Notes: generated by a model from the letters alone, not told the origin. A stretch of DNA of 59,376 bases from Minisyncoccota bacterium (GCA_041389005.1 JAWKSR010000005.1:1-59376), one strand, 5' to 3'; counted from the first letter of the stretch, positions 5,386-53,058 are shown. Made by a program: numbers and translations.

Positions 5386-5407
5386 AATAACGGTCTGTAT
5401 AGCTCAC

Positions 5408-5436
5408 ATAGACCCACTTCTAGGGTCGGGGTATAC
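5408..5436 (+). repeat. 29-nt direct repeat, copy 1 (5' arm of the recO terminator)
   Basis: ATAGACCCACTTCTAGGGTCGGGGTATAC is identical at 5547-5575. Confidence 0.9.
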
Positions 5437-5463: not shown

Positions 5464-5546
5464 GAGAAGACAGAATCTTTACCGCTACAATCTTGAGACC
5501 CTTTTTGCAATCCTTCAGTGAGTGAAAACATTGCTGTACAACAGCA

Positions 5547-5575
5547 ATAGACCCACTTCTAGGGTCGGGGTATAC
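5547..5575 (+). repeat. 29-nt direct repeat, copy 2
   Basis: Identical to 5408-5436 and lacks the 3' arm. It lies 12 nt upstream of the ATG at 5588. Confidence 0.9.
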
Positions 5576-9266: not shown

Positions 9267-10712
9267 ATGTCTGACAAATCCGCGCGCTATATCACCACCA
9301 CCTTGCCGTATGTAAATGCCGAGCCGCACGTTGGTTTTGCGCTAGAAGCAGTACAAGCGGACACGCTGGCACGATACTGGCGACACGTTGCCGGATGTGA
9401 AGTATTTTTTAATACGGGTACGGATGAGCATGGACAAAAAATAGCGGATAAAGCCGATGAAGCAGGGAAAGATAGACAAGCCTATGTCGATCACTATGCG
9501 GCTGAGTTTGGCAAACTGAAAGAAGCCCTGAATCTTTCGTACGACAACTTTATCCGTACTACTGACCCACAGCACAAAGCCGCCGCGCAAGCCATCTGGC
9601 AACGTTGTGCTGAGAACGGCTACATCGACAAAAAGGTCTATAAAGGTCTCTACTGTGTGGGGGACGAGATGTTCTTGCGCGAGAGTGACCTGGTTGATGG
9701 CAGGTGTCCCAACCATCCTAATATTGATCCAATCGAGATTGAAGAAGAAAACTACTACTTCAAACTCTCTGAGTTTGAAGACTATCTGATTGAATATTTA
9801 AGCAACCCTGCTTCGGTAACACCCGAATGGCAACGCCAGTGGGCACTCGATTTTGTGAAAAGTGGTTTGGGTGACTTATCTATCTCTCGCCCTAGGAGTC
9901 GCGTGGATTGGGGTATTCCTGTGCCGGGTGATGATGAGCATGTTATGTACGTGTGGTTCGATGCCCTTACCAACTACATCTCTACACTTGGCTGGGAAGC
10001 AGATACCGATGGTAATTTTAAGAAGTTTTGGCAGGATGGACAGACGCTCCAGCTTGCTGGGAAAGATCAGGTACGATTCCAGTCCATCATTTGGCAGGCA
10101 ATGTTAAAGGCGGCTGACCTTCCAGCTACCGACACTGTTTTCTATCACGGCTTTATCACCAGTGGTGGACAAAAAATGAGTAAGAGTCTCGGCAATGTCA
10201 TTTCTCCATACGAAATGATAGAACGCTATGGCACTGATGCTACTCGCTACCTACTGCTTAGACATATCCACCCGACCGATGATTCAGACATCACCTGGGA
10301 GAAAATGGACGAATGGTACACTGCCAACCTAGTAAACGGTCTTGGCAATCTTACTGCCCGCATTATGAAGATGGCGGAGACTCATTTAAAGGGTCCGATT
10401 GAAAAACCACAAGTTGGTCAATTTGACGAAGCGTATCTTAAAGCTCTTGATGAATATAACTTCCAAGGCGCCTGTGATTTTGTGTGGCAGAAAGTAGGGG
10501 AGCTTGATGAGCGAATTACTGAGACCGAACCGTTCAAACTAGTCAAAGAAGATAAAGAAGCAGCCCAAGAGATAATCAAAGAACTCGTGCACGATCTCTA
10601 CCTTGTTGGACGGATGCTTTTCCCGCTTATGCCAGAAGCCAATGTCATTATCAAAGAAGCAGTCCTTGCCAACAAAAAACCAGAGAATTTGTTTACTCGG
10701 TTAGAGATTTAA
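9267..10712 (+). CDS. metG: methionine--tRNA ligase
   Basis: TTTLPYVNAEPHVGF (HIGH-type) and KMSKSLGN. Intact 481-aa ORF. Confidence 0.93.
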   Translation: MSDKSARYITTTLPYVNAEPHVGFALEAVQADTLARYWRHVAGCEVFFNTGTDEHGQKIADKADEAGKDRQAYVDHYAAEFGKLKEALNLSYDNFIRTTDPQHKAAAQAIWQRCAENGYIDKKVYKGLYCVGDEMFLRESDLVDGRCPNHPNIDPIEIEEENYYFKLSEFEDYLIEYLSNPASVTPEWQRQWALDFVKSGLGDLSISRPRSRVDWGIPVPGDDEHVMYVWFDALTNYISTLGWEADTDGNFKKFWQDGQTLQLAGKDQVRFQSIIWQAMLKAADLPATDTVFYHGFITSGGQKMSKSLGNVISPYEMIERYGTDATRYLLLRHIHPTDDSDITWEKMDEWYTANLVNGLGNLTARIMKMAETHLKGPIEKPQVGQFDEAYLKALDEYNFQGACDFVWQKVGELDERITETEPFKLVKEDKEAAQEIIKELVHDLYLVGRMLFPLMPEANVIIKEAVLANKKPENLFTRLEI

Positions 10713-15648: not shown

Positions 15649-16222
15649 CTATGCCTTCTCAATGCGTTCGGAGTACTGTCCAGTTTCGGTATTCACCGCT
15701 ACCGCGTCACCTTGGTTGATGAACTGGGGTACTTGGATAATTGCTCCCGTCTCCAAGGTTACTTCCTTGGTGGCGCCGCTTGGTGTTGCCTTTAACTGCC
15801 TCTGAGGCTTCTTTCACTGCCAGCTCAACTTTTATCGGTACCATGACACTCATGATCTCATCGTCAAAGACTAAGGCAGTCACCACACTGTTTTCTTTCA
15901 AAAAACGAGCATCACCAGCAATAATATCTTCTGCAAAACTAAACCGATCGCTCGGGTTATCTGGCGTACAGAACCAAAATTCACCACGGTTATTGTAGAG
16001 GTACTTCACCTCACGCTTCTCTATATCAGCTTCATCTAAGACATCAGACTGATGAAAGGTACGGTCTACTACACCGCCCGTCTTGAGGTTTTTCATTTTG
16101 ACCGCGTTGCTTGCTTTCTGACGGTCTTTTTTACTAATTGCCGAAGACAACACCACGTATGGATCACCGTCCATAATAACGGTGCGTTTCGGGAGTAATT
16201 CATTGTATTGTAGTTTCGCCAC
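15649..16222 (-). CDS. efp: elongation factor P (C-terminal domain in a shifted frame as assembled)
   Basis: ORF 15707-16222 carries domains I and II. The last part (SGATKEVTLETGAIIQVPQFINQGDAVAVNTETGQYSERIEKA) reads in another frame to a TAG at 15649-15651. GTG start. Confidence 0.85.
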
Positions 16223-16264
16223 GCTAGTTTTCTATGAGTGATAACGAATTAGAAAATCTTACGT

Positions 16265-16338
16265 CTGCCCCATTTCGGGCGAAGTGCGTGCTGAATAAGG
16301 TAATAGCACGAGCCCGTAACAGGAAATGGGGTGGGGCA
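16265..16338 (+). repeat. conserved ~72-nt stem-loop element, copy A (candidate structured RNA)
   Basis: The core at 16268-16331 is CCCCATTT CGGGC GAA GTGC GTGCTGAATAAGGTAATA GCAC GA GCCCG TAACAGG AAATGGGG. A near-identical copy lies at 27090-27161 with compensatory changes in the 4-bp stem. Confidence 0.6.
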
Positions 16339-16410
16339 AACGTAAATCAGTCATCTTTATAACAAAGTCGGGAAAGAAAGGCAAAATCCTGCAACTTTCT
16401 GTTTTTACAG

Positions 16411-16425: not shown

Positions 16426-17011
16426 ATGCTTGGACTCACCAATACTGACCATTTGCACGATTTGAGTGATGAGGAATTACTGGCTCGTTCTCGTAAAGAG
16501 CCATGGGTGTTTGCTGCACTTCTAGACCGCTACCAAGACGCCTTTATGCGTAAAGCCATGAGTATCATCCACAATGAACTGGACGCTGAAGAAATAGTAC
16601 AAGACGCCTTTACCAAGATATACATCAACGCTGACCGTTTTGAGCCGCAAGAAGGTGCTAAGTTCTCTTCGTGGGGGTACCGTATCCTCATGAATACTGC
16701 CTTTACTCGCTACCAAAAGCGGGTAAAAGAAGGACAGCGTTTTACCAATATCGACCCCGAGTTTGAACAATTGATCGGCGAGCGGAGCGAGCATAGTGCT
16801 TTGAAGAACGCCGTGACGCTATTGACCGAGTATTAGAACGTTTGCCGGGACACTTTGCGTATGTATTGCGTCTGCATTATCTCGAACGTTGGAGTCAGCA
16901 GGATATTGCACAAGAGACTGGGAGACAGTAGGGACTGTCAAAGCCCGTATTCATCGTGCCAAAGCTGCGTTCGGGAGGAGACTGGAGACGAGGAAGTACG
17001 GCAGCTCCTAA
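16426..17011 (+). pseudogene. ECF-type RNA polymerase sigma-70 family factor, frame-disrupted as assembled
   Basis: Region 2 (EEIVQDAFTKIY...FSSWGYRILMNTAF) is in ORF 16426-16836. The region 4 HTH (LRLHYLERWSQQDIAQETG / TVGTVKARIHRAKAAFGRRL) is spread over two other frames, ending at a TAA at 17009-17011. Confidence 0.7.
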
Positions 17012-17066
17012 AAGACTGAAACTTTTTAGCGTGCAGTCGTGTTTAATAAAGGGTAATACTACGAAT

Positions 17067-17387
17067 ATGTCATACCAAACCATTCATACCACTATCATGC
17101 GCCGCGTGTACTATGCCTTTGCCGTACGTCTGGCGACTCACACAGTAACGTTGCACGTGCTGGCTCTGGCAGTGCTCGGCTTTGTGCTCGCTAAGCTGGT
17201 CTTTGTGGCTCGCGTGTACGAGAACCTCGCTAGTCGCGAATTCGGTGAGTTACTACCCGCTACGCTTCGCATACTCATGCATGCTGACGTACTCACCCTC
17301 GTTGTCTTTGCCGTAGCTGTCTTCACTGCACTATCCCTTCCAGTCCGTACGTTTGTACTGCGACCGGCGCCATTGCAATTTGCCTAA
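17067..17387 (+). CDS. hypothetical membrane protein (possible anti-sigma partner, by position only)
   Basis: ATG at 17067. 106 aa with three predicted TM helices, directly downstream of the ECF sigma gene. Confidence 0.4.
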   Translation: MSYQTIHTTIMRRVYYAFAVRLATHTVTLHVLALAVLGFVLAKLVFVARVYENLASREFGELLPATLRILMHADVLTLVVFAVAVFTALSLPVRTFVLRPAPLQFA

Positions 17388-17444: not shown

Positions 17445-18511
17445 CTAATCTTCTTTCAGCGCTTTACGGATATTCTTCAAAAGATCGTTAGCGACTTTCT
17501 TATTCTCTCGCAGGTAGGTGCGAGCAGCATCGTACCCACGGCCGAGTTTCTCAACGGAGGATTCATCACCGCCCGGGGAGTGTATGAGTAGGAGGCGCCT
17601 GCTTTGGCAACCATGTTGTATTTTTCACCCAGTGCGAGGAGCTCACCTTCACGGCTGATACCCTCGCCATAGATAAGATCAAACTCAGTGGTGCGGAACG
17701 GCGCAGCGACCTTGTTTTTTACCACTTTCACTCGATGGCGACCTCCGACCACTTCGTCACCTTTTTGATTTGAGCAATACGGCGGATATCAAGGCGAACT
17801 GACGTATAAAATTTAAGGGCTTTACCACCTGGCGTTGTTTCCGGATTGCCAAACATCACACCAACCTGCATACGAATTTGGTTGATGAAAATAACCACGG
17901 TCTTACTCTTAGCTACAATACCAGTGAGTTTACGTAACGCCTGACTCATCAGACGCGCTTGTTTACCAACGTGATGAGCTCCCATTTCACCCTCAATTTC
18001 GTCTCGCGGAGTAAGGGCAGCAACGGAGTCGATAACAATCACGTCAACATCACCAGAACGCACCAAGGACTCAACAATCTCGAGTGCCTGCTCACCATTG
18101 TCTGGTTGTGAGATGAGTAGTTCATCCATCTTCACGCCAAGGTTTTTAGCGTACTCAGGGTCCATGGCGTGTTCAGCGTCGATAAAGGCACAGACACCAC
18201 CTGTTTTTTGCGCCTCAGCCACGGCATGGAGTGAGAGAGTAGTTTTACCAGAAGATTCAGGTCCGTATATCTCAACAATACGTCCGCGGGGAAGTCCACC
18301 AATACCTAATGCGTCATCAAGCCCAATGGAGCCAGTTGAGATGGCATCCACGTCAACTTTATGACCCTCAGCGAAGGTCATGATAGCTTCCTCACCAAAC
18401 TTAGTTTTAATACTACGTAGCGCTTCGGTAATCTTGGTCGAATCCTTCTTTTTTCAGGGGTTTCAGTAGAAGGGGTTTTTGCAGTTGTCTTTTAGCAGCT
18501 TTCTTAGCCAT
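17445..18511 (-). pseudogene. recA: recombinase RecA, frame-disrupted as assembled
   Basis: ORF 17728-18381 holds the Walker A (GPESSGKTT) and FINQIR. ORF 17477-17752 holds the following segment. The N-terminus (MAKKAAK..., ATG at 18511) and the C-terminal tail (...[17 protein letters not shown] at 17445) are in other frames. At least 4 breaks. Confidence 0.9.
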
Positions 18512-26577: not shown

Positions 26578-27063
26578 ATGAGTGAAGAACAAAAGAAAGA
26601 CGAAGTAGTAGCGGAGACGAAAGAAGAAGCTACTCCAGCTACTGAAGAAAAAGCTGAGGAATCAACGTCTGATGTTGACGAGACGGTTGAGGTGCCAAAG
26701 GAATTTAAGGCGCTTGTAGAACAAGTAGAAAAGATGACTGTACTTGAGTTGCATGAGCTCGTAAAAGTACTTGAAAAGCGCTTTGGCGTATCAGCTTCTG
26801 CAGTAGCAGTGGCCGGTCCAGCTGCTGGCGGCGACGCTGGTGGGGAAGAGCAGAGTGAGTTCACGGTAGAGCTGGCTGATGCTGGTGCTCAGAAGATCGC
26901 TGTTATTAAGGTGGTCAAAGAAGCTTGCGGTCTTGGTCTGAAGGAAGCCAAGGACATGGTAGACGGTGCTCCAGCAGAAGTGAAAGCTGGTCTTAAGAAA
27001 GAAGAAGCTGAAGAACTTAAGGCAAAACTAGAAGAAGCTGGAGCGAAAGTTAATTTGAAATAA
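26578..27063 (+). CDS. rplL: 50S ribosomal protein L7/L12 (with a ~40-aa acidic N-terminal extension if the ATG at 26578 is used)
   Basis: [18 protein letters not shown]..., an A/G hinge, and the C-terminal domain [52 protein letters not shown]. Confidence 0.9.
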
Positions 27064-27082
27064 CGATTTCAAATTAACTTTC
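27045..27082 (+). other. perfect 16-bp hairpin spanning the rplL stop codon
   Basis: GAAAGTTAATTTGAAA-TAACGA-TTTCAAATTAACTTTC. The TAA stop lies in the loop. Confidence 0.7.
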
Positions 27083-27089
27083 GCGGAAT

Positions 27090-27161
27090 CCAGCCCCGTT
27101 TCGGGCGAAACACGTGCTGAATAAGGTAATAGTGTGAGCCCGTAACAAGAAATGGGGCTGG
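27090..27161 (+). repeat. conserved ~72-nt stem-loop element, copy B (candidate structured RNA)
   Basis: CCAGCCCCGTTT CGGGC GAA ACAC GTGCTGAATAAGGTAATA GTGT GA GCCCG TAACAAG AAATGGGGCTGG. The 12-bp P1 includes one G-T pair. Confidence 0.6.
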
Positions 27162-27168
27162 ATGGTGC

Positions 27169-27207
27169 AAAGAAAAAATGCGTACTAAACGTACGTATTT
27201 TTTCTTT
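27169..27207. terminator. A/T-flanked hairpin (bidirectional terminator type)
   Basis: AGAAAAAATGCGTAC-TAAAC-GTACGTATTTTTTCT. Confidence 0.55.
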
Positions 27208-27235: not shown

Positions 27236-27268
27236 AAAGAGCCGAGGACATCGAGTCCTCGGCTCTTT
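27236..27268 (+). terminator. intrinsic terminator
   Basis: AAAGAGCCGAGGAC-ATCGA-GTCCTCGGCTCTTT followed by ATTTG. Confidence 0.6.
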
Positions 27269-27324
27269 ATTTGTATACTCAATGACTTGGAAGGCTATAA
27301 ATCTCAAATAAGGTTTATAGCCCT

Positions 27325-27362
27325 AAACAAAAAGCACAGACTTCGGTCTGTGCTTTTTGTTT
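27325..27362. terminator. intrinsic terminator (17-bp stem)
   Basis: AAACAAAAAGCACAGAC-TTCG-GTCTGTGCTTTTTGTTT. Confidence 0.7.
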
Positions 27363-27438
27363 AGGAAATACGCACTACTGCCTGTCCAGACTGTATATAT
27401 AAGAAGCGTGCTATAATCCGACCACTGTTCGCACAGCT

Positions 27439-28905: not shown

Positions 28906-28955
28906 TGGGTATAACTTTGGGGATAACACCGTGGAGAAAAGTCAATGCAGAAGTG

Positions 28956-28983
28956 TTGACATTTAAGTAGATTCCTATAGAAT
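28956..28983 (+). promoter_or_regulatory. candidate 23S-5S operon promoter
   Basis: TTGACA (28956-61), a 16-nt spacer, then TAGAAT (28978-83), followed by GGCGCCTAC. Confidence 0.5.
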
Positions 28984-29706
28984 GGCGCCTACGTATATGA
29001 GTTTAACCAACAAGCAATCGTAGCGGACTGAAGATCGCCTTGCGATTTTCTGCCGCATCTCGCGGTTTTGTTGGAAAACTTGCGAAATGCGTAGGTTTTT
29101 TGAAAAAACCTGGCGTTAGTGGCTGGTAACACAGCCAACGCGTCATGCATATCCTTTGAATCAAGTTGATGAAGGTCTGATTCCAGAAAGTCCTGTCTGT
29201 GTACTCGACATACACAGCGCCCGGGTAATACTTGTACACTCAAGCAGGTAAGTCTGTCGGGTAAAGATTATGTAGAAACACTACAGGGTCTTTTCGTCCC
29301 CGATGAACAAATGTTGTATATCAACAGATACAACAAAACCAACGTTCAAAAATTCTGTAGAGTTTTGAACATCACTCAAGTCAATGTACGGCGATTGTGC
29401 AGCATTTCCTTGCAGGAATGTAAGGGTGTATAGTGGATGCCTAGGTTTACAAGAGCGATGAAAGACGTGGAATGGCTGCGATAAGTTTCGGCGAGGTGCC
29501 AAGTAAACGCTTCGACCCGGAAATTTCTGAATACGAGGAAACCACTCCGTGTTCCGCACGGAACCTGTGTATGCAAGGGCGTACCTTGGGAAGTGAAACA
29601 TCTCAGTACCAAGAGGAAGAAAGCAATAGACGGAACTTTCTTTCTGGACGACACTGTCAAGACTTGTCTGGACGCCATTGTGTTCAGGAAGAAGGTTCTT
29701 GCGATT

Positions 29707-29744
<38 letters not shown>

Positions 29745-29965
29745 GTACGTGTTTACATGTACGGGGTTGTAGGACAGTAACAGCATTTAGTTGCGCGAAG
29801 TTACCAAGTATAGATATAGCAAAACGCTCTGCGACGACCCTAGTGGGTAATAGTCCCGTATGCGAAATGTCTGCTACCTGTGGTTACCGTTCCTGAAGTG
29901 GTTCGAGACATGAATAGCTCGAATGAATCTGCCGGCACTAACCGGTAAGGCTAAATATCTTGTAA

Positions 29966-29996
<31 letters not shown>

Positions 29997-30572
29997 AGGT
30001 GAAAAAGAACCCCGGGAGAGGGGAGCAAAATAGATCTGAAACCATACATCTACAGAGTCGGAGCCCTGCGGGGCGGCGGCGTGCCTATTGAAGAATGAGC
30101 GGCGAGTGTATCTTTGTCCTTTGTCTAAGGGTAACCCCCCGCAGGCACAGTGAAAGCGAGCGTTAATAGCGCGACTATAGGGCAGGGATACGACCCGAAG
30201 CGGGAAGAGCTTGCCATGAGCAGGGTGAAGCGGAGGTAATACTCCGTGGAGGCCCGAACCGGTTGGCCGTACAAACCATCGGATGACTTGTGGTAAGGAG
30301 TGAAAAGCTAATCGATTTCCGTAATAGCTGGTTCTCTCCGAAACAGCTTTAGGGTTGGCGTCGAGTGAAGCACTGAAGGTGGGGGGCACTGGAAGAGATA
30401 AATGTAGGAAACCTCGTTAACTTTCTATCAAACTCGAATACCAGTTGGTTATAGCTCTCAGCAGTTAGACTATGAGAGAAGCTCCATTGGTCAAAAGGGG
30501 AGCAGCCCAGATCGCCAGTTAAGGTCCCTAAATATATGCTCGGTGCATCTCGGAGGAGGTGAGGATTCTCAA

Positions 30573-30607
<35 letters not shown>

Positions 30608-30696
30608 TAAAATAGGCGTAACAGCTCACTGGTCGAGTCCTTGCGCCGAAGATGATCAGGGCTCAAGCATATTACCGAAACTGCGGATTCGTACAC

Positions 30697-30878
30697 TTCA
30701 TAAGGGATAGACATATTGGAATTTTTCCATGTCAGTGTTAGATTACTAAGCACAAAAGCAATGGTCACGGGACCGTAAAAGCTGTGCAGGATGGTGATAA
30801 TACTCGGATTTATCCGGATCTCTGACAACTGCCAAAGTAGTGGACTTTTTGTCCCACTTGCTTTGGCTCCCTTACTGA
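30697..30878 (+). other. ~180-nt insertion replacing the helix-45 loop of the 23S (IVS-like)
   Basis: The flanking helix strands TTCGTACAC (30688-96) and GTGTGCGAG (30879-87) correspond to the E. coli hairpin at about 1164-1185. The interior has no E. coli counterpart. Confidence 0.6.
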
Positions 30879-31410
30879 GTGTGCGAGTGGTAGGAGAGCG
30901 TTCGTAGTGCGATGAATGGAAGGGTAACCCGCCCTGGGCCGCTGCAAGTGAGAATGCCGGCACAAGTAACCTGGAACGGGTGAGACCCCCGTCCGCCGAA
31001 ATACCAAGGTTTCCTTCGCGATGGTGATCAGCGAAGGGTTAGTCGGTCCTAAAGGAGGAATCCCGAACGGGGGACCCGATGGAGAGCAGGTTAATATTCC
31101 TGCACACTGCTGCGTTTCGATGGAGGGACGGAGTGTTGTACCTACGGCATCTTATTGGATTGGTGCTGGAACTATGAGCGTCTTGCTTAGGCAAATCCGG
31201 TGGAAATAGCGCGAAGTAGAGTCTGAATGTGAGGGAGCTACGGCTGAGCAAATGTGGGAGCACACTTCCGAGAAAAACTTCTAAGGTTAAGCGTAGCGGT
31301 TCCGTACCTGAAACCGACACAGGTGGTAGGGTCAGAAGACCAAGGCGAACGAGTGAGAGGTCCTTAGGAACTCGGCAAAAAAGCGGCCGTAACTTCGGGA
31401 TAAGGCCTGC

Positions 31411-31748
31411 CCAATACACCACTTTGTCCTCAACTAACCCAGAAGAGGTACAAGTGGAAGCAGCAGCACAAGCTTTTAGAACTGTAAAAACAACAAGCAC
31501 TCTTTCCATTTCTGGAAGTGTTGGTGGCAGCTCAGTCACCAAATTTGTGTTTGAAAGCGGTGAAGAAGCAACCATTGAAATTAGCGATTTACGAGACGCA
31601 ATCAAAAGGGACGATGTTAAATCGCCGTATTCGGTCTTACGTTGTCTGTAGACAATTCGTTCAGGACGAAAGGTCTGTAGAAGCTCTGGGCATCTTAAAT
31701 TTTAGCCACAATCGTTCTTTGCGGATTGAGGCTAAAGTGGTATATTGG
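31411..31748 (+). other. ~340-nt stem-closed insertion at helix 63 of the 23S
   Basis: CCAATACACCACTTT (31411-25) pairs with AAAGTGGTATATTGG (31734-48). It lies between GGGATAAGGC and GACTGTTTAAC, where E. coli has a hairpin of about 45 nt. Confidence 0.6.
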
Positions 31749-31940
31749 AGCCGCAGCGAAAGATTTCCTGGCGACTGTTTAACAAAAACACAGCTCCCTG
31801 CGAACTCGTAAGAGGATGTATAGGGGGTGACGCCTGACCAATGCCGGAAGGTTAAGCACGGATGGTGTAATGACTTTTAGTTGTTATGCTGGGCTGTGTA
31901 AGCCCCGGTCAATGTCAGCGATAACTATAATCGTTCTGAG

Positions 31941-32183
31941 TACAGCACATGTGCATGCACGTGGGTTGTACGGACTGGAACGATTATATGAGTCTAAAGA
32001 CTCATTGTTAAATAGCCCGAGCCATAGTTACCTTCTCAGCTAGAAATAAGTTAGAGATAGTCCACCTAGCCAACAAGGAGACCAAATGCTAGGCACCTTC
32101 ACTTCAGATTCTGAAAAGGTGAAAGTGGAATATCCCTATTATTGCACGCATCTACTAAGGCAGATGCCGTGAAGAAAAAATAG
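31941..32183 (+). mobile_element. ORF-less group I-type intron in the 23S just 3' of helix 69 (boundaries +/- a few nt)
   Basis: It interrupts CTGAG | TAGGCGTATTTCCTTGTC, equivalent to E. coli CCUAAG|GUAGCGAAAUUCC at about 1929-1931. It contains an S-element-like AGAGATAGTCC (32053-62), a P7 pairing GGACT/AGTCC and a P8-like hairpin GAGTCT-AA-AGACTC. Confidence 0.6.
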
Positions 32184-32826
32184 GCGTATTTCCTTGTCCG
32201 GGCAGATTCCGACGTGCACGAATGGCGTAACGACTGGGAAACTGTCTCAAGGACCTGCTCGGTGAAAATACAATAGGGGTAAAGATGCCCCTTACCTGCA
32301 ATTAGACGAAAAGACCCCAGGAGCTTTACTGTAGCTTCGTATTGGGGCTGTTGAGTATGTGCGTAGTATAGTGGGGAGACTTTGAAGCGTACCTTTCGGG
32401 GGACGTGGAGTCGTCAGTGAAATACCCATCTCATTTTTGGCAGTCTCTAACCTGGTAGGAAAAACCTATTAGGGACATTGCGTGGCAGGCAGTTTTAGTG
32501 GGGCGCTACCCTCCCAAAGAGTAACGGAGGGGTCTCAAGGTCAACTAGGCGCGAATGGAAACCGTGCCGATAGTGCAATGGCAAAAGTTGGCTTGACTGC
32601 AAGGCGTAGATGCCAAGCAGACACGAAAGTGGAGCATAGTGAACCGATGGTACGCTTTAGATGCGGCCGGAGATTACCCGATAAAAGTTACCCTGGGGAT
32701 AACAGGCTAGTCGTGCCCAAGCGTCCAAAGCGACGGCACGGTTCGGCACCTCGATGTCGGCTCGACTTATCCTGGGGCTGGAGCAGGTCCCAAGGGTTTG
32801 GCTGTTCGCCAATTAAAAAGTCACGC

Positions 32827-32860
<34 letters not shown>

Positions 32861-32907
32861 CTCCTATCTACTGCAGGCGTCGATACTTGACGAGATTTGT
32901 CCCTAGT

Positions 32908-33683
32908 AAGAAATTGCTACTTCAGGGTGAGAACCCTGATGACAATACGGCTTATAACGGTGAAGTCTACGTCACTCCCGGTTTTAGAGGGTGGTACACC
33001 ATGGTCCATTGTGTACCAAACTCGCTTGAGGACCGGAAAAGTGATATGATAATACCGTGGGAAGTCGACTCAACACAGATTTAGCATACATTGCAGGTTT
33101 CCTTGATGGAGACGGAAGCATTATGTTGCAAGTAAAGAAGCGTAGCGACACCAGTCGCGGCGTTCGCTTTATGGCGGCTATATGCCTCTATCAAGATACT
33201 GCTCGCAAAACCACTAGGTGGGCTCGTGAAGTCTTAGGTATTGGTTATTATCGCACCGCAAGGACGGTATAACTGAGCTGAGGATCAATGGTTTTGCTTC
33301 GGTAAGAAAAGTGCTTTTAAAGCTCGCTCCGTATATCAAGTTTAAACAAGCTCAAGTAGTAGCCCTACATAAGGCTTGTGAAATACTTGAAAATACAACC
33401 ATGAGTAAGCTTAGCGAAGCACAATTACGTACGTTAGTTGATTTGGTTTTTACAATCAAAGAACACAACTACAAAAGTACTCAAACACTTACCAAAGACA
33501 TATTGCTACTGCGTTTGGGTTTGACCCCGTAACGACTTGCACTGAAAGATGTGCGGACTCATGGGTAGAGGAATCATTTCAAAGAAAATGACTGCTCCCA
33601 TGGGTAAGATGCCGTCATCCTCACTGGTGTCCGCCAGACGGATGAAGATATAGTCTGTGCTCCTGGAAACAGGGGAATACACG
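32908..33683 (+). mobile_element. group I intron carrying a LAGLIDADG ORF, inserted in the sarcin-ricin loop region of the 23S
   Basis: The exons read ...GTCCCTAGT | ACGAGAGGACCGGG. The 5' exon ends in T and the intron ends in G. The S element AAGATATAGTC is at 33645-33655. P7 is CGGACT/AGTCTG, and a P8-like hairpin is CATGGG...CCCATG. Confidence 0.7.
33057..33532 (+). pseudogene. LAGLIDADG homing endonuclease (single-motif, I-CreI-like), one frameshift as assembled
   Basis: LAYIAGFLDGDGSIMLQVKK... in ORF 33057-33272. It continues as SHRKDGITELRINGFASVRKVLLKLAPYIKFKQAQVV... in the frame of ORF 33311-33532. Confidence 0.75.
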
Positions 33684-33762
33684 ACGAGAGGACCGGGATG
33701 AACTGACCTCTGGTCTAAGAGCTGTCGCGCCAGCGGCATCGCTCTGTAGCTATGTTGGGAAT

Positions 33763-33795
<33 letters not shown>

Positions 33796-34302
33796 AACTT
33801 GAAGATTAGGTATCATTAAGTCTCCTGAGAGATTATCAGGTTGATAGGCACTAGGTGGAAGTGTGGTAACACATGCAGCCGAGGTGTACTAATAAGACGT
33901 AATTCTTGCAAGGAATACTGTACACGGCTAAACATTCAAAATGAGCGCATTTGCACTCGCTTCGGATTTGTCGCTTGTCACCTTACGATGAAGTAAGGCT
34001 CCAGCGCACCAAATCCTCCAGCCAGCACAACTGCATCACATTTTGAAATGTTTGCTAAAAATACAATTTAATTTGAGTAAGAGTCGTATGCTTCATTAGG
34101 ACGGAGTGCGTTATTGATACGTTTGGGTCTTTCCCTGCTGGTCGCCCATGATGCCATTAATAGGCGGGTCAAGAAGTGAAAACCAGAGCTCCGTCCGTGT
34201 TCTTACAACATGGACATGGCGAACCCTCACCGTTATGAGTTCGCCGTTCTAATGAAGTATTCGACTACAAAAAGGATATGCAAAGTTTAAAGAGCTTTTA
34301 AA

Positions 34303-34412
34303 GTTGGTGGGTCAGCGAGTGGGGTACACCCGTTCTCATTCCGAACACGGCAGTTAAGCCGCTTCGCGCCGATGGTACTTCTTTCTTAGAGGGAGAGTAG
34401 GTCACCGCCAAC
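34303..34412 (+). rRNA. rrf: 5S ribosomal RNA
   Basis: GTTGGTGG...CCCGTTCTCATTCCGAACACGGCAGTTAAGC...GCGCCGATGGTACT...GGGAGAGTAGGTCACCGCCAAC. Confidence 0.9.
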
Positions 34413-34949
34413 TTTAAGGGCTTTTTATTTTACTCTACACAATAAGGATTACTTTACTTTTTATAAAAAAATTGTATTATACAGAAAGAATGCATAGAGA
34501 GACTGGTGAACTCTCGGGCTAGTACATTGTGCGGCTGCTCCCGTCTCCCCGCAGGGGTGAGAGCCATGTTATAGAGAAGGTTTGAAGCCTCACTCGACAT
34601 GCCGTGGGTGTCAGTGCACGCACGGGTTGGAGGAACGATATCACAGGTTGTGGCAAAAATTTACTTTAGAGTTTAAGAACATATGACTTAAGCATGTGTT
34701 CTAAACAAAATTCACACGACAGTGATGTCCGGAATCTGACTGGATTTCTTCGGTCACGCTAGCGGGAGAGGATAGAGCTGCTTACTCTAGACCTCTCCAC
34801 TCACCACAAACTACTGCCCAACTGGGCAGTTTCGTAAGAAAAGCTAGCCTAGCTCGTCTTATAAGGCAGAATAGCCGGCTGATGATTGTATACAAGTCTT
34901 GCGCACAATCATTAGCTATGTTCCCACCGCAATCAGAGAAGGAAAACAA

Positions 34950-50422: not shown

Positions 50423-51880
<1,458 letters not shown>

Positions 51881-52831: not shown

Positions 52832-52984
52832 TCTCGTTACACGAGCTGTATACCTTTTGACTATTTCTGTTCGTCACCTCCAGAAATATAGCAAAAGCTT
52901 CTAAAACAGTTCCCCAAACTGTTTTAGCCTTTCGAGTGAGAAGCGAAGCTTCGCAAGACTGCTTTAGATATTTTGCGTTTTCTG

Positions 52985-53058
52985 TCCGCGCTCTAGGATT
53001 TGAACCTAGGACCTTTCGAGTATCAGTCGAATGCTCTAGCCAACTGAGCTAAGCGCGG
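52985..53058 (-). tRNA. tRNA-Ile (anticodon GAU)
   Basis: Cloverleaf folded by hand. Acceptor CCGCGCT/AGCGCGG. D arm GCTC-AGTTGGCTA-GAGC. Anticodon arm TTCGA-CTGATAC-TCGAA. T arm CTAGG-TTCAAAT-CCTAG. Discriminator A. CCA is not encoded. Confidence 0.85.

Follow-up and report, generated by a model that had tools for sequence, protein, structure and literature searches.

In this study, a 59,376-nt stretch of DNA from a Minisyncoccota bacterium (GCA_041389005.1, JAWKSR010000005.1:1-59376; hereafter the window) was found to carry two copies, designated A and B, of a stem-loop element. The element belongs to an uncatalogued family of structured RNAs of approximately 78 nt, so far seen only in a subset of the Paceibacteria (Patescibacteria). 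The family consists of 14 members from ten genomes or assemblies, all of them Patescibacteria/Paceibacteria assemblies, and these members share a fold in which many base pairs are changed on both sides while pairing is kept. By the tests run, the element resembles several known kinds of RNA and is a member of none, which makes it a solid candidate for a new RNA motif in an under-studied phylum.

Fold, covariation and strand

The presence of copies A and B, first proposed in an initial annotation of the window made from the sequence alone, was confirmed at the sequence level. Mean column identity between the copies is 92% over a 70-nt core (16265-16334 and 27091-27160), and together they form the longest non-trivial direct repeat of the window. 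The loop 18-mer GTGCTGAATAAGGTAATA occurs exactly twice in the window, matches with up to three mismatches included, and two or more matches were obtained in 0 of 100 shuffles. A filters-off covariance-model search of the window gave no third copy and no weaker copies, in agreement with the annotated count of two in 59 kb; the element nonetheless occurs outside this contig. As had been proposed, three of the four pairs of helix P3 are changed on both strands between the copies with pairing kept (GTGC/GCAC in copy A, ACAC/GTGT in copy B). The other differences are one P1 pair (A-U in A, G.U in B), the outer P1 triplet and one purine of the bulge, and copy A has a degenerate outer P1 in which three pairs are G.U. 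Both copies fold far better than shuffled sequence: the plus strand reached -33.7 kcal/mol (z -4.2) for copy A and -40.8 kcal/mol (z -7.2) for copy B, and the minus strand -24.5 and -31.6 kcal/mol, respectively.

The family fold is a rod composed of P1, a 7-nt bulge in the 3' strand, P2, a tandem G.A loop, P3, an asymmetric internal loop, P4 and a pentaloop. The succession of P1, 3' bulge, P2, GAA/GA loop and covarying P3 given by the initial annotation is maintained across 14 sequences, and two of its details were revised. P1, described as 8-12 bp long, exists as a helix and measures 14-15 bp, with the conserved base (A/G)CC-CAG...CUG-GG(U/G). The region described as an invariant 18-nt loop is indeed the loop region and is not unpaired throughout, as it contains helix P4 of 2-3 bp, which covaries (C-G/U-A, C-G/C-G, G-C/C-G, U-A/C-G) and closes a pentaloop G-R-A-Y-A. 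The pattern of this pentaloop fits a GNRA-like pentaloop. P2 (CGGGC/GCCCG) and the A-rich bulge UAACAAG are invariant among the canonical members, the variable purine apart; the tandem G.A (5' G-A-(N) against 3' G-A) is kept in all members, and the 4-bp P3 covaries freely. A divergent second copy at the related locus L122, termed L122b, has UGGUU/AACCG with a U.G closing pair as P2 and UAGAGA as the bulge, and retains the tandem G.A.

The covariation was measured in two alignments. In the structure-blind one (A6, MAFFT), the share of paired cells is 92.7%, and 18 of 26 base pairs have changes on both sides; in the model-fitted one (A4), the corresponding values are 96.2% and 12 of 20. None of 500 shuffles matched either alignment, and slid controls reached 29-45% for A6 and 33-49% for A4. 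In addition, RNAalifold on six sequences recovered P1, P2 and P3 independently.

The claim that the RNA lies on the plus strand received modest support. Paired cells number 250 of 260 in the sense direction and 243 of 260 in the antisense direction. G.U cells exceed A.C cells (11 versus 4), the minimum free energy (MFE) is better on the sense strand in 12 of 13 cases, and the conserved tandem G.A of the sense strand would read U.C/C.U on the opposite strand. Together, these observations modestly favour an RNA from the plus strand.

Two other readings of the copies were rejected. A small open reading frame (ORF) across copy A (16234-16362) is non-coding, because a stop codon interrupts its frame inside copy B. 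Moreover, the copies are not attachment (att) or boundary repeats of a 10.8-kb island, since the interval between them contains the housekeeping genes recA, ftsK-like, rplJ and rplL.

Distribution, neighbourhoods and known families

The initial annotation could not place the element in any known RNA family, and the covariance search against Rfam which it proposed led to the same result. With gathering thresholds, Rfam 15 (4227 models) gave only rRNA and tRNA in the window and 12 related loci (in the window, the rRNAs and one tRNA), and a permissive scan (E<=10) of both copy regions gave no match overlapping A or B. ARAGORN called no tRNA or tmRNA at the element, its only call being a tRNA-Ile at 52984-53058, and no Rfam match identified the element as signal recognition particle (SRP), 6S or RNase P RNA. 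A full-text literature search with the core sequence returned only unrelated primer matches.

Relatives were retrieved by a 3'-half pattern and the skeleton CGGGCGA-N25-31-GAGCCCGTAACA, followed by covariance models R1 to R3. The covariance-model search of related genomes, likewise proposed by the initial annotation, found further members in other Patescibacteria: 12 beyond the window, 11 of them distinct, in nine other assemblies. There are 13 distinct copies, and one further match duplicates a member. Locus L103 is from the same organism as L127. In addition to window A and B, the members are L100 and L121 (one metagenome-assembled genome), L125 and L127 (13 kb apart on one 30-kb contig), L103, L101, L102, L117, L118, L122, L124 and L131, together with L122b (2046-2127). 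Whole-genome pattern scans gave one or two canonical copies per genome. The remaining pattern matches, in other phyla and viral contigs, were rejected by the models as chance, and viral, phage and plasmid collections contained no member. An exact scan with the 18-mer loop produced only 11 matches among GTDB representative genomes, all attributable to chance, and no match among viral contigs, the 5'-half pattern had no match in JGI metagenomes, and exact-protein look-ups of the window genes were mostly without match. Among 80 Patescibacteria rplL loci searched with R1 (the two-sequence model), R2 and R3, only plain hairpins and no element were found, and the syntenic relatives L095-L097 and L136-L140 are without the element.

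Four copies follow rplL, 15-31 nt past the stop codon and just beyond a hairpin that overlaps this codon. The gene array of these copies is rplJ-rplL-element-winged-helix-like (wHTH) gene-MscS-like gene-23S, with terminator-like hairpins 5-45 nt downstream. Two orthologous copies, window A and L103/L127, lie in the spacer between efp and a sigma factor gene, and their flanks cannot be aligned. Single copies were located in the rpsH-rplF spacer (24 nt ahead of the start of L6), 32 nt ahead of secE-nusG-rplK, in the spacer that separates rpmB from the M50 peptidase-rpsL genes, between rpsL and rpsG on the opposite strand, antisense to the str operon (L124), and inside a 23S leader, approximately 330 nt downstream of a conserved rRNA promoter as judged by eye from the alignment (L125). 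Other single copies were located approximately 190 nt after 5S (L121), after DUF1360 and upstream of rplJ (L122b), and upstream of a peptidoglycan (PG)-binding gene (L118), a gene that in L095 belongs to the rplJL neighbourhood. Seven of about nine independent sites directly flank genes for ribosomal components, which was judged, by rough estimate and not by a computed test, to be far above what random spacers would give. Furthermore, the exact spacer within one neighbourhood differs from genome to genome. The rplL site of the window is also occupied in L117, L131 and L122, where the wHTH protein has only 38-42% identity and the element core is identical, and the efp-sigma site is also occupied in SAT3048.

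The two loci in the window

The features of both loci are listed in Table 1. The genes assigned around copy A by the initial annotation, the position of copy B after the rplL stop codon and the TAACGA hairpins upstream of both copies were all borne out.

Table 1. Element copies, their structural parts and neighbouring features in the window
Feature	Position	Strand	Evidence or remark
Element copy A	16261-16338	+	sequence; fold; covariance-model scores 101.4, 87.0 and 79.6 bits
Copy A, P1	~16264-16275 with 16324-16335		
Copy A, P2	16276-16280 with 16312-16316		
Copy A, tandem G.A loop	16281-16283 against 16310-16311		
Copy A, P3	16284-16287 with 16306-16309		
Copy A, P4	16291-16292 with 16298-16299		
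Copy A, pentaloop	16293-16297		GAAUA
Copy A, bulge	16317-16323		UAACAGG
Element copy B	27087-27164	+	sequence; fold; covariance-model scores 101.9, 93.6 and 92.8 bits; starts 28 nt past the rplL stop, rplJ-rplL upstream
Copy B, P1	27088-27101 with 27150-27163		
Copy B, P2	27102-27106 with 27138-27142		
Copy B, G.A loop	27107-27109 against 27136-27137		
Copy B, P3	27110-27113 with 27132-27135		
Copy B, P4	27117-27118 with 27124-27125		
Copy B, pentaloop	27119-27123		
Copy B, bulge	27143-27149		UAACAAG
efp	15707-16222	-	Pfam EFP_N, EFP; C-terminus frameshifted against the intact 191-aa L103 orthologue; divergent from copy A
Hairpin H0 upstream of copy A	16228-16256	+	arms TTTTCTA / TAGAAAA; loop TGAGTGATAACGAAT; TAACGA at 16242-16247; 5 nt from the start codon of opposite-strand efp
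-10-like TATAAC	16358-16363		conserved; downstream of copy A
Extracytoplasmic function (ECF)-type sigma factor gene	16426-16836	+	Pfam Sigma70_r2; broken by frameshift; intact orthologues 198-200 aa
rplL (L7/L12)	26578-27063	+	Pfam Ribosomal_L12, Ribosomal_L12_N; immediately upstream of copy B
rplL-end hairpin	27046-27081	+	perfect 15 bp; 5' arm is the last rplL codons; loop TAACGA (27061-27066) holds the stop codon
Terminator-like hairpin	27169-27207	+	flanked by A run and T run; starts 5 nt after copy B; sequence and scan
Second terminator-like hairpin	27237-27275	+	AAAGAGCCGAGGAC ... GTCCTCGGCTCTTT, then ATTTGT

The hairpin H0 is part of a module, AGAWTTTCTTA-(TGAGYG..AACGAAT)-TTAGAAAWTCT, which lies approximately 8 nt 5' of the element at window A, L103, L100 and L124. 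At all four loci, its outer arm is 3-5 nt from the start codon of an opposite-strand gene (efp, rpmB or rpsG). L101 and L102 carry the H0 loop motif with different stems, and the TAACGA of window A forms part of this motif. When aligned with L136, H0 and the element together behave like an indel of approximately 115-120 nt, estimated by eye, between the efp start and the block CTTTATAACAAAGTC...AAAGGCAAAA. This block is common to the window and L136 and likely contains the -10 element of the sigma gene; the TTATAAC block of the window is also present in L136 and L103. In the H0 arms, each strand has a -10-like GAAAWT, located 7-8 nt ahead of the element in one case and 5 nt ahead of the divergent ATG in the other, and so H0 could possibly act as a bidirectional promoter, an arrangement not called by simple scan: around copy A, scanning for the sigma-70 consensus yielded no more than expected from shuffles.

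At the other locus, a structural equivalent of the rplL-end hairpin was found in L117, L131 and L122 with the element and in L095 (~9684-9716) without it, which shows that this hairpin is independent of the element. Terminator-like hairpins are likewise present in L117 and L131, 35-45 nt past the element. Since terminator-like hairpins follow the element, the rplL-type copies belong to the 3' untranslated region (UTR) of rplJL.

Several observations were made in the surroundings of these loci. In the window, efp (15707-16222), the sigma gene (16426-17387) and recA (17477-18381) are interrupted by frameshifts, as the orthologues of L103, L127, L095 and L136 are intact. These interruptions suggest pseudogenisation or an assembly rich in indels, perhaps from long reads, and the same cause may also account for the degenerate outer P1 of copy A and a missing base in H0. 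Downstream of copy B, a conserved CTGTCCAGAC ... TGnTATAAT lies at 27360-27410 and in L093, L094 and L095, upstream of the 208-aa wHTH gene, and is probably this gene's own promoter and operator. The efp-sigma spacers of L139 (~715-760 and 905-950) and L140 (~9900-9945), both close relatives without the element, hold another hairpin repeat, TCCAG..AATTTGCTC-TAGGACAG-GAGCAAATT..GGGA, with two copies in L139 and one in L140. Exact runs of 100 N were found in L012 (2234-2333, directly after rplL in the closest GTDB relative), L122 (4289-4388, 28 nt past the element) and L100 (1147-1246); those of L012 and L122 look like ordinary scaffold gaps and were rejected as informative masks, and assemblies may break near hairpin-rich spacers.

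The 23S leader (window 28955-29330; L125 1100-1700) has a clear promoter, TTGACA-N-TATAGAAT. In this leader, the window and SAT3048 have several conserved blocks in common, including TATGAGTYTRACC, directly after the start, and GGTCTTTTCGTCCYCGAT..., and the former resembles the H0 loop motif TATGAGTGATAACGAAT. The window 23S rRNA measures 3485 nt against a model of 2925 nt, which indicates insertions (region 29410-34413), and approximately 1.4 kb with an ORF at 32482-33084 separates 23S from 5S; LAGLIDADG and GIY-YIG genes occur in the 23S region of relatives (L097). The 16S gene is unlinked (50423-51880), and its 3' end (51840-51880) reads ...GGAAGCTGGTCGTGGATTAATTCCAA, with no CCUCC anti-Shine-Dalgarno. 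The inspected starts (sigma and wHTH genes of the window; L6 and secE genes of relatives) are A/U-rich upstream and have no GGAGG. Finally, a 42-nt direct repeat (...ATAGACCCACTTCTAGGGTCGGGGTATAC) with 86% identity lies at 5395-5436 and 5534-5575, 139 nt apart, at the 5' end of a 688-aa ORF starting at 5522.

Candidate roles of the element

Four assignments were tried and rejected. The element is not a kink-turn: a tandem GA(N)/GA is present, but the G.A pairs lack a 3-nt bulge on their 5' side, and the 7-nt bulge lacks a following GA. Mimicry of rRNA was rejected, for although CGTAACAAG and GCCCGU resemble 16S helix 44, common 9-mers are expected by chance, and 9-10-mers shared with the organism's own 16S and 23S, CGTAACAAG included, were seen in 73% and 27% of shuffles, respectively. 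A ribosomal-protein autoregulatory leader was rejected on the same chance-level likeness and on the varying positions (leader, intercistronic, 3' UTR). An intrinsic terminator was rejected as well, because no copy has a T run after P1 and the terminator scan does not call the element.

The reading that we tentatively favour is that the element is a self-contained RNA domain which a common partner would recognise; it would arise together with ribosomal transcripts and possibly be cut out of them at the P1 base. This reading fits best because the position shifts, one copy is inverted, gain and loss are cassette-like, and the unpaired nucleotides are densely conserved. With different spacers and one inversion, the element behaves like an independent small gene, comparable to tRNA genes, and not like a fixed leader. 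It would then work irrespective of where exactly in a transcript it lies. The element would be made along with rRNA and ribosomal-protein transcripts, in which some copies are embedded (rplJL 3' UTR, spc operon, 23S leader, 5S trailer), and for copies of the A type the upstream H0 module might instead supply the promoter. The bulge, the G.A platform and the pentaloop may form a recognition surface for one common protein, or for the ribosome or RNA polymerase, and the long P1 with its conserved base is a likely handle for excision or end protection, with RNase III-type cleavage as one candidate. The outcome would be a small stable RNA or ribonucleoprotein (RNP) whose abundance tracks ribosome synthesis. 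Precedents are small RNAs embedded in 3' UTRs or operons and tRNA genes in rRNA or tuf-secE clusters, which are likewise small stable RNAs co-transcribed with translation genes and flexible in place and orientation; unlike these, the element is neither tRNA nor tmRNA, and its processing and trans target are only proposed.

Several points weigh against this self-contained domain. The element is dispensable, since four close relatives, whose sigma proteins are 82-90% identical, are without it in the syntenic efp-sigma spacer, and two of these four, with wHTH proteins 84-85% identical, are also without it at the rplL site. As distant relatives keep it at the same sites while these close relatives lack it, the element is, on comparison of the sequences, old and strongly constrained where kept, yet dispensable. 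The invariance of P2 and the bulge is in part due to ascertainment, because the search patterns demanded both. No consistent promoter or terminator flanks the element. Furthermore, the strand evidence is modest (250 versus 243 of 260 paired cells), and at the four loci with H0 the closest conserved promoter, which belongs to the neighbouring gene, would drive transcription of the other strand. Excision and action in trans are purely inferred.

A possible, though doubtful, alternative is that the element acts only in cis as a processing or stability hairpin, that is, an RNase III site or 3'-end protector which would set the relative stability of the segments of its own transcript. Nine of the 13 distinct copies are sense-oriented inside operon transcripts, at sites which include the stretch from the rplL stop to the terminator (window B, L117, L131), the spc operon, the 23S leader, the 5S trailer and the secE leader. 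P1 is a duplex of 14-15 bp with a conserved base, a length compatible with the approximately 11-22 bp of an RNase III substrate. The RNase III hairpins of Escherichia coli (rRNA precursors, rplL-rpoB spacer, secE-nusG leader) and of phage T7 early mRNA are similarly long and imperfect with internal loops, those of E. coli lie in similar places, and the T7 sites share sequence among themselves. RNase III sites are also present in E. coli rRNA precursors. The work of Barry in 1980 reportedly dealt with processing of the E. coli rplJL-rpoBC unit, and that of Downing in 1990 is said to have dealt with processing of the secE-nusG operon. By this analogy, the locations of the element appear strikingly like E. 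coli processing sites, and the reference list of PMC5371410 (refs 65-66) includes processing studies of E. coli rplJL-rpoBC (Barry 1980) and secE-nusG (Downing 1990). However, the strict bulge, G.A platform and apical pentaloop, which set the element apart from such hairpins, exceed the needs of a double-strand nuclease, for which cleavage here is only a candidate. In addition, the copy at L124 runs antisense to the str operon, and the position within a neighbourhood is not conserved. Copies of the A type are not obviously inside any mRNA, because they lie upstream of the sigma promoter block and diverge from efp.

The patchy distribution would also suit a non-autonomous mobile or selfish palindrome, similar to repetitive extragenic palindromes (REP/REPIN), miniature inverted-repeat transposable elements (MITEs) or PATEs, that inserts beside hairpins in intergenic spacers. 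Close relatives are empty at both window sites while distant genomes are occupied at the same sites, and H0 with the element forms the indel against L136 described above. The window copies are 92% alike, one family copy is inverted, and the efp-sigma spacers of L139 and L140 carry a different small hairpin repeat. As with REP, BIME and REPIN sequences, which can sit between stop codon and terminator and have compensatory stems, the element is an extragenic imperfect palindrome found in 3' UTRs, and all 14 copies are intergenic hairpins. Nevertheless, those repeats number tens to hundreds of copies, whereas whole representative-genome pattern scans gave one or two canonical copies of the element per genome; it has no GTAG-type 5' tetranucleotide, and its asymmetric conserved motifs suit an RNA. 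The initial annotation had reasoned that copies in both orientations flanked by target-site duplications would point to a MITE: one copy, L124, is indeed inverted, and the sequence flanking the 13 distinct copies contains only an inverted extension of P1 (ACC...GGU) and no direct repeats. Moreover, viral, phage and plasmid collections hold no member, the core is conserved with compensatory changes across distant genomes with approximately 40%-identical neighbouring proteins, and by the rough estimate given above the preference for ribosomal flanks is very unlikely for random spacers. With so few copies, no target-site duplications and such deep conservation, a repeat of the REP/MITE type is unlikely, and, of the options offered initially, the data fit a structured RNA or a protein-binding UTR element.

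It is still less probable that the element is an elongation signal of the nut or put type, in which the nascent hairpin, with a boxB-like pentaloop stem and an exposed UAACAA, would recruit factors of the Nus type or bind RNA polymerase, making the polymerase resistant to terminators in rRNA and ribosomal-protein operons. Phage lambda boxB is a GNRA-like pentaloop. In lambda nut and rrn boxB-boxA, as in the element with its G-R-A-Y-A pentaloop of this form, a pentaloop hairpin is followed by a TAACA-containing single-stranded stretch. One copy lies in a 23S leader past the promoter, one lies before secE-nusG-rplK, and several lie just upstream of terminator hairpins. TAACA in the bulge agrees with TAANA, the 3' portion of GYTCTTTAANA, the boxA consensus of gamma-proteobacteria, for which a double mutant, C4T/T6C, has lost function (PMC5725501). 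However, the element reads AGCCCGTAACA and was rejected as a boxA: only 5 of 11 positions match (TAANA and C4), T6 of that double mutant is not among them, the would-be 5' half is locked in P2, and the stretch is a bulge inside a long helix. Furthermore, most copies lie outside leaders, one is placed after 5S at an operon end and one is antisense, and the rRNA leaders of the window itself are without the element.

The least probable of these alternatives is a riboswitch or self-cleaving ribozyme embedded in ribosomal operons. The compact fold with its many invariant unpaired nucleotides offers an aptamer-like core, made up of the A-rich bulge, the tandem G.A and a pentaloop of GNRA-like pattern with the potential to dock, and the varied transcript positions, low copy number and patchy phylogeny resemble those of small ribozyme classes. 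However, there is no conserved expression platform, the next start codon is 24-94 nt away or none lies downstream, and no Rfam riboswitch or ribozyme matches at E<=10.

Among catalogued motifs, Rfam holds orphans tied to ribosomal or transcription genes, such as Bacteroidales-1, Lacto-rpoB and Rhodo-rpoB. Like the element, they are lineage-restricted, supported by covariation and placed beside ribosomal-protein or rpoB-cluster genes; the element differs in having no match to the 4227 Rfam models and in occupying several ribosomal neighbourhoods, once in opposite orientation. A bolder proposal, which we consider rather unlikely, is that the element is the RNA of a novel small RNP, or a new ribozyme or sensor class, in one branch of the candidate phyla radiation (CPR), made in stoichiometric amounts with ribosomal transcripts and acting on ribosome biogenesis or translation. 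In these organisms, a canonical anti-Shine-Dalgarno sequence is also missing.

In conclusion, the genomes of the Patescibacteria are tiny and contain very little non-coding DNA, and to our knowledge few lineage-specific RNAs are known from them. Strong covariation, dense invariant unpaired nucleotides and placement at loci for rRNA, ribosomal proteins, EF-P, sigma factor and NusG make the element a good candidate for a new RNA, regulatory or structural, that belongs to the gene-expression machinery of an uncultivated phylum. The analysis also provides a covariance model, defined boundaries and testable predictions, namely a discrete RNA from the plus strand, a partner protein and processing at the P1 base. 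Even if the element should prove to be only a processing hairpin, it would represent a rare sequence-conserved processing signal common to several ribosomal operons.

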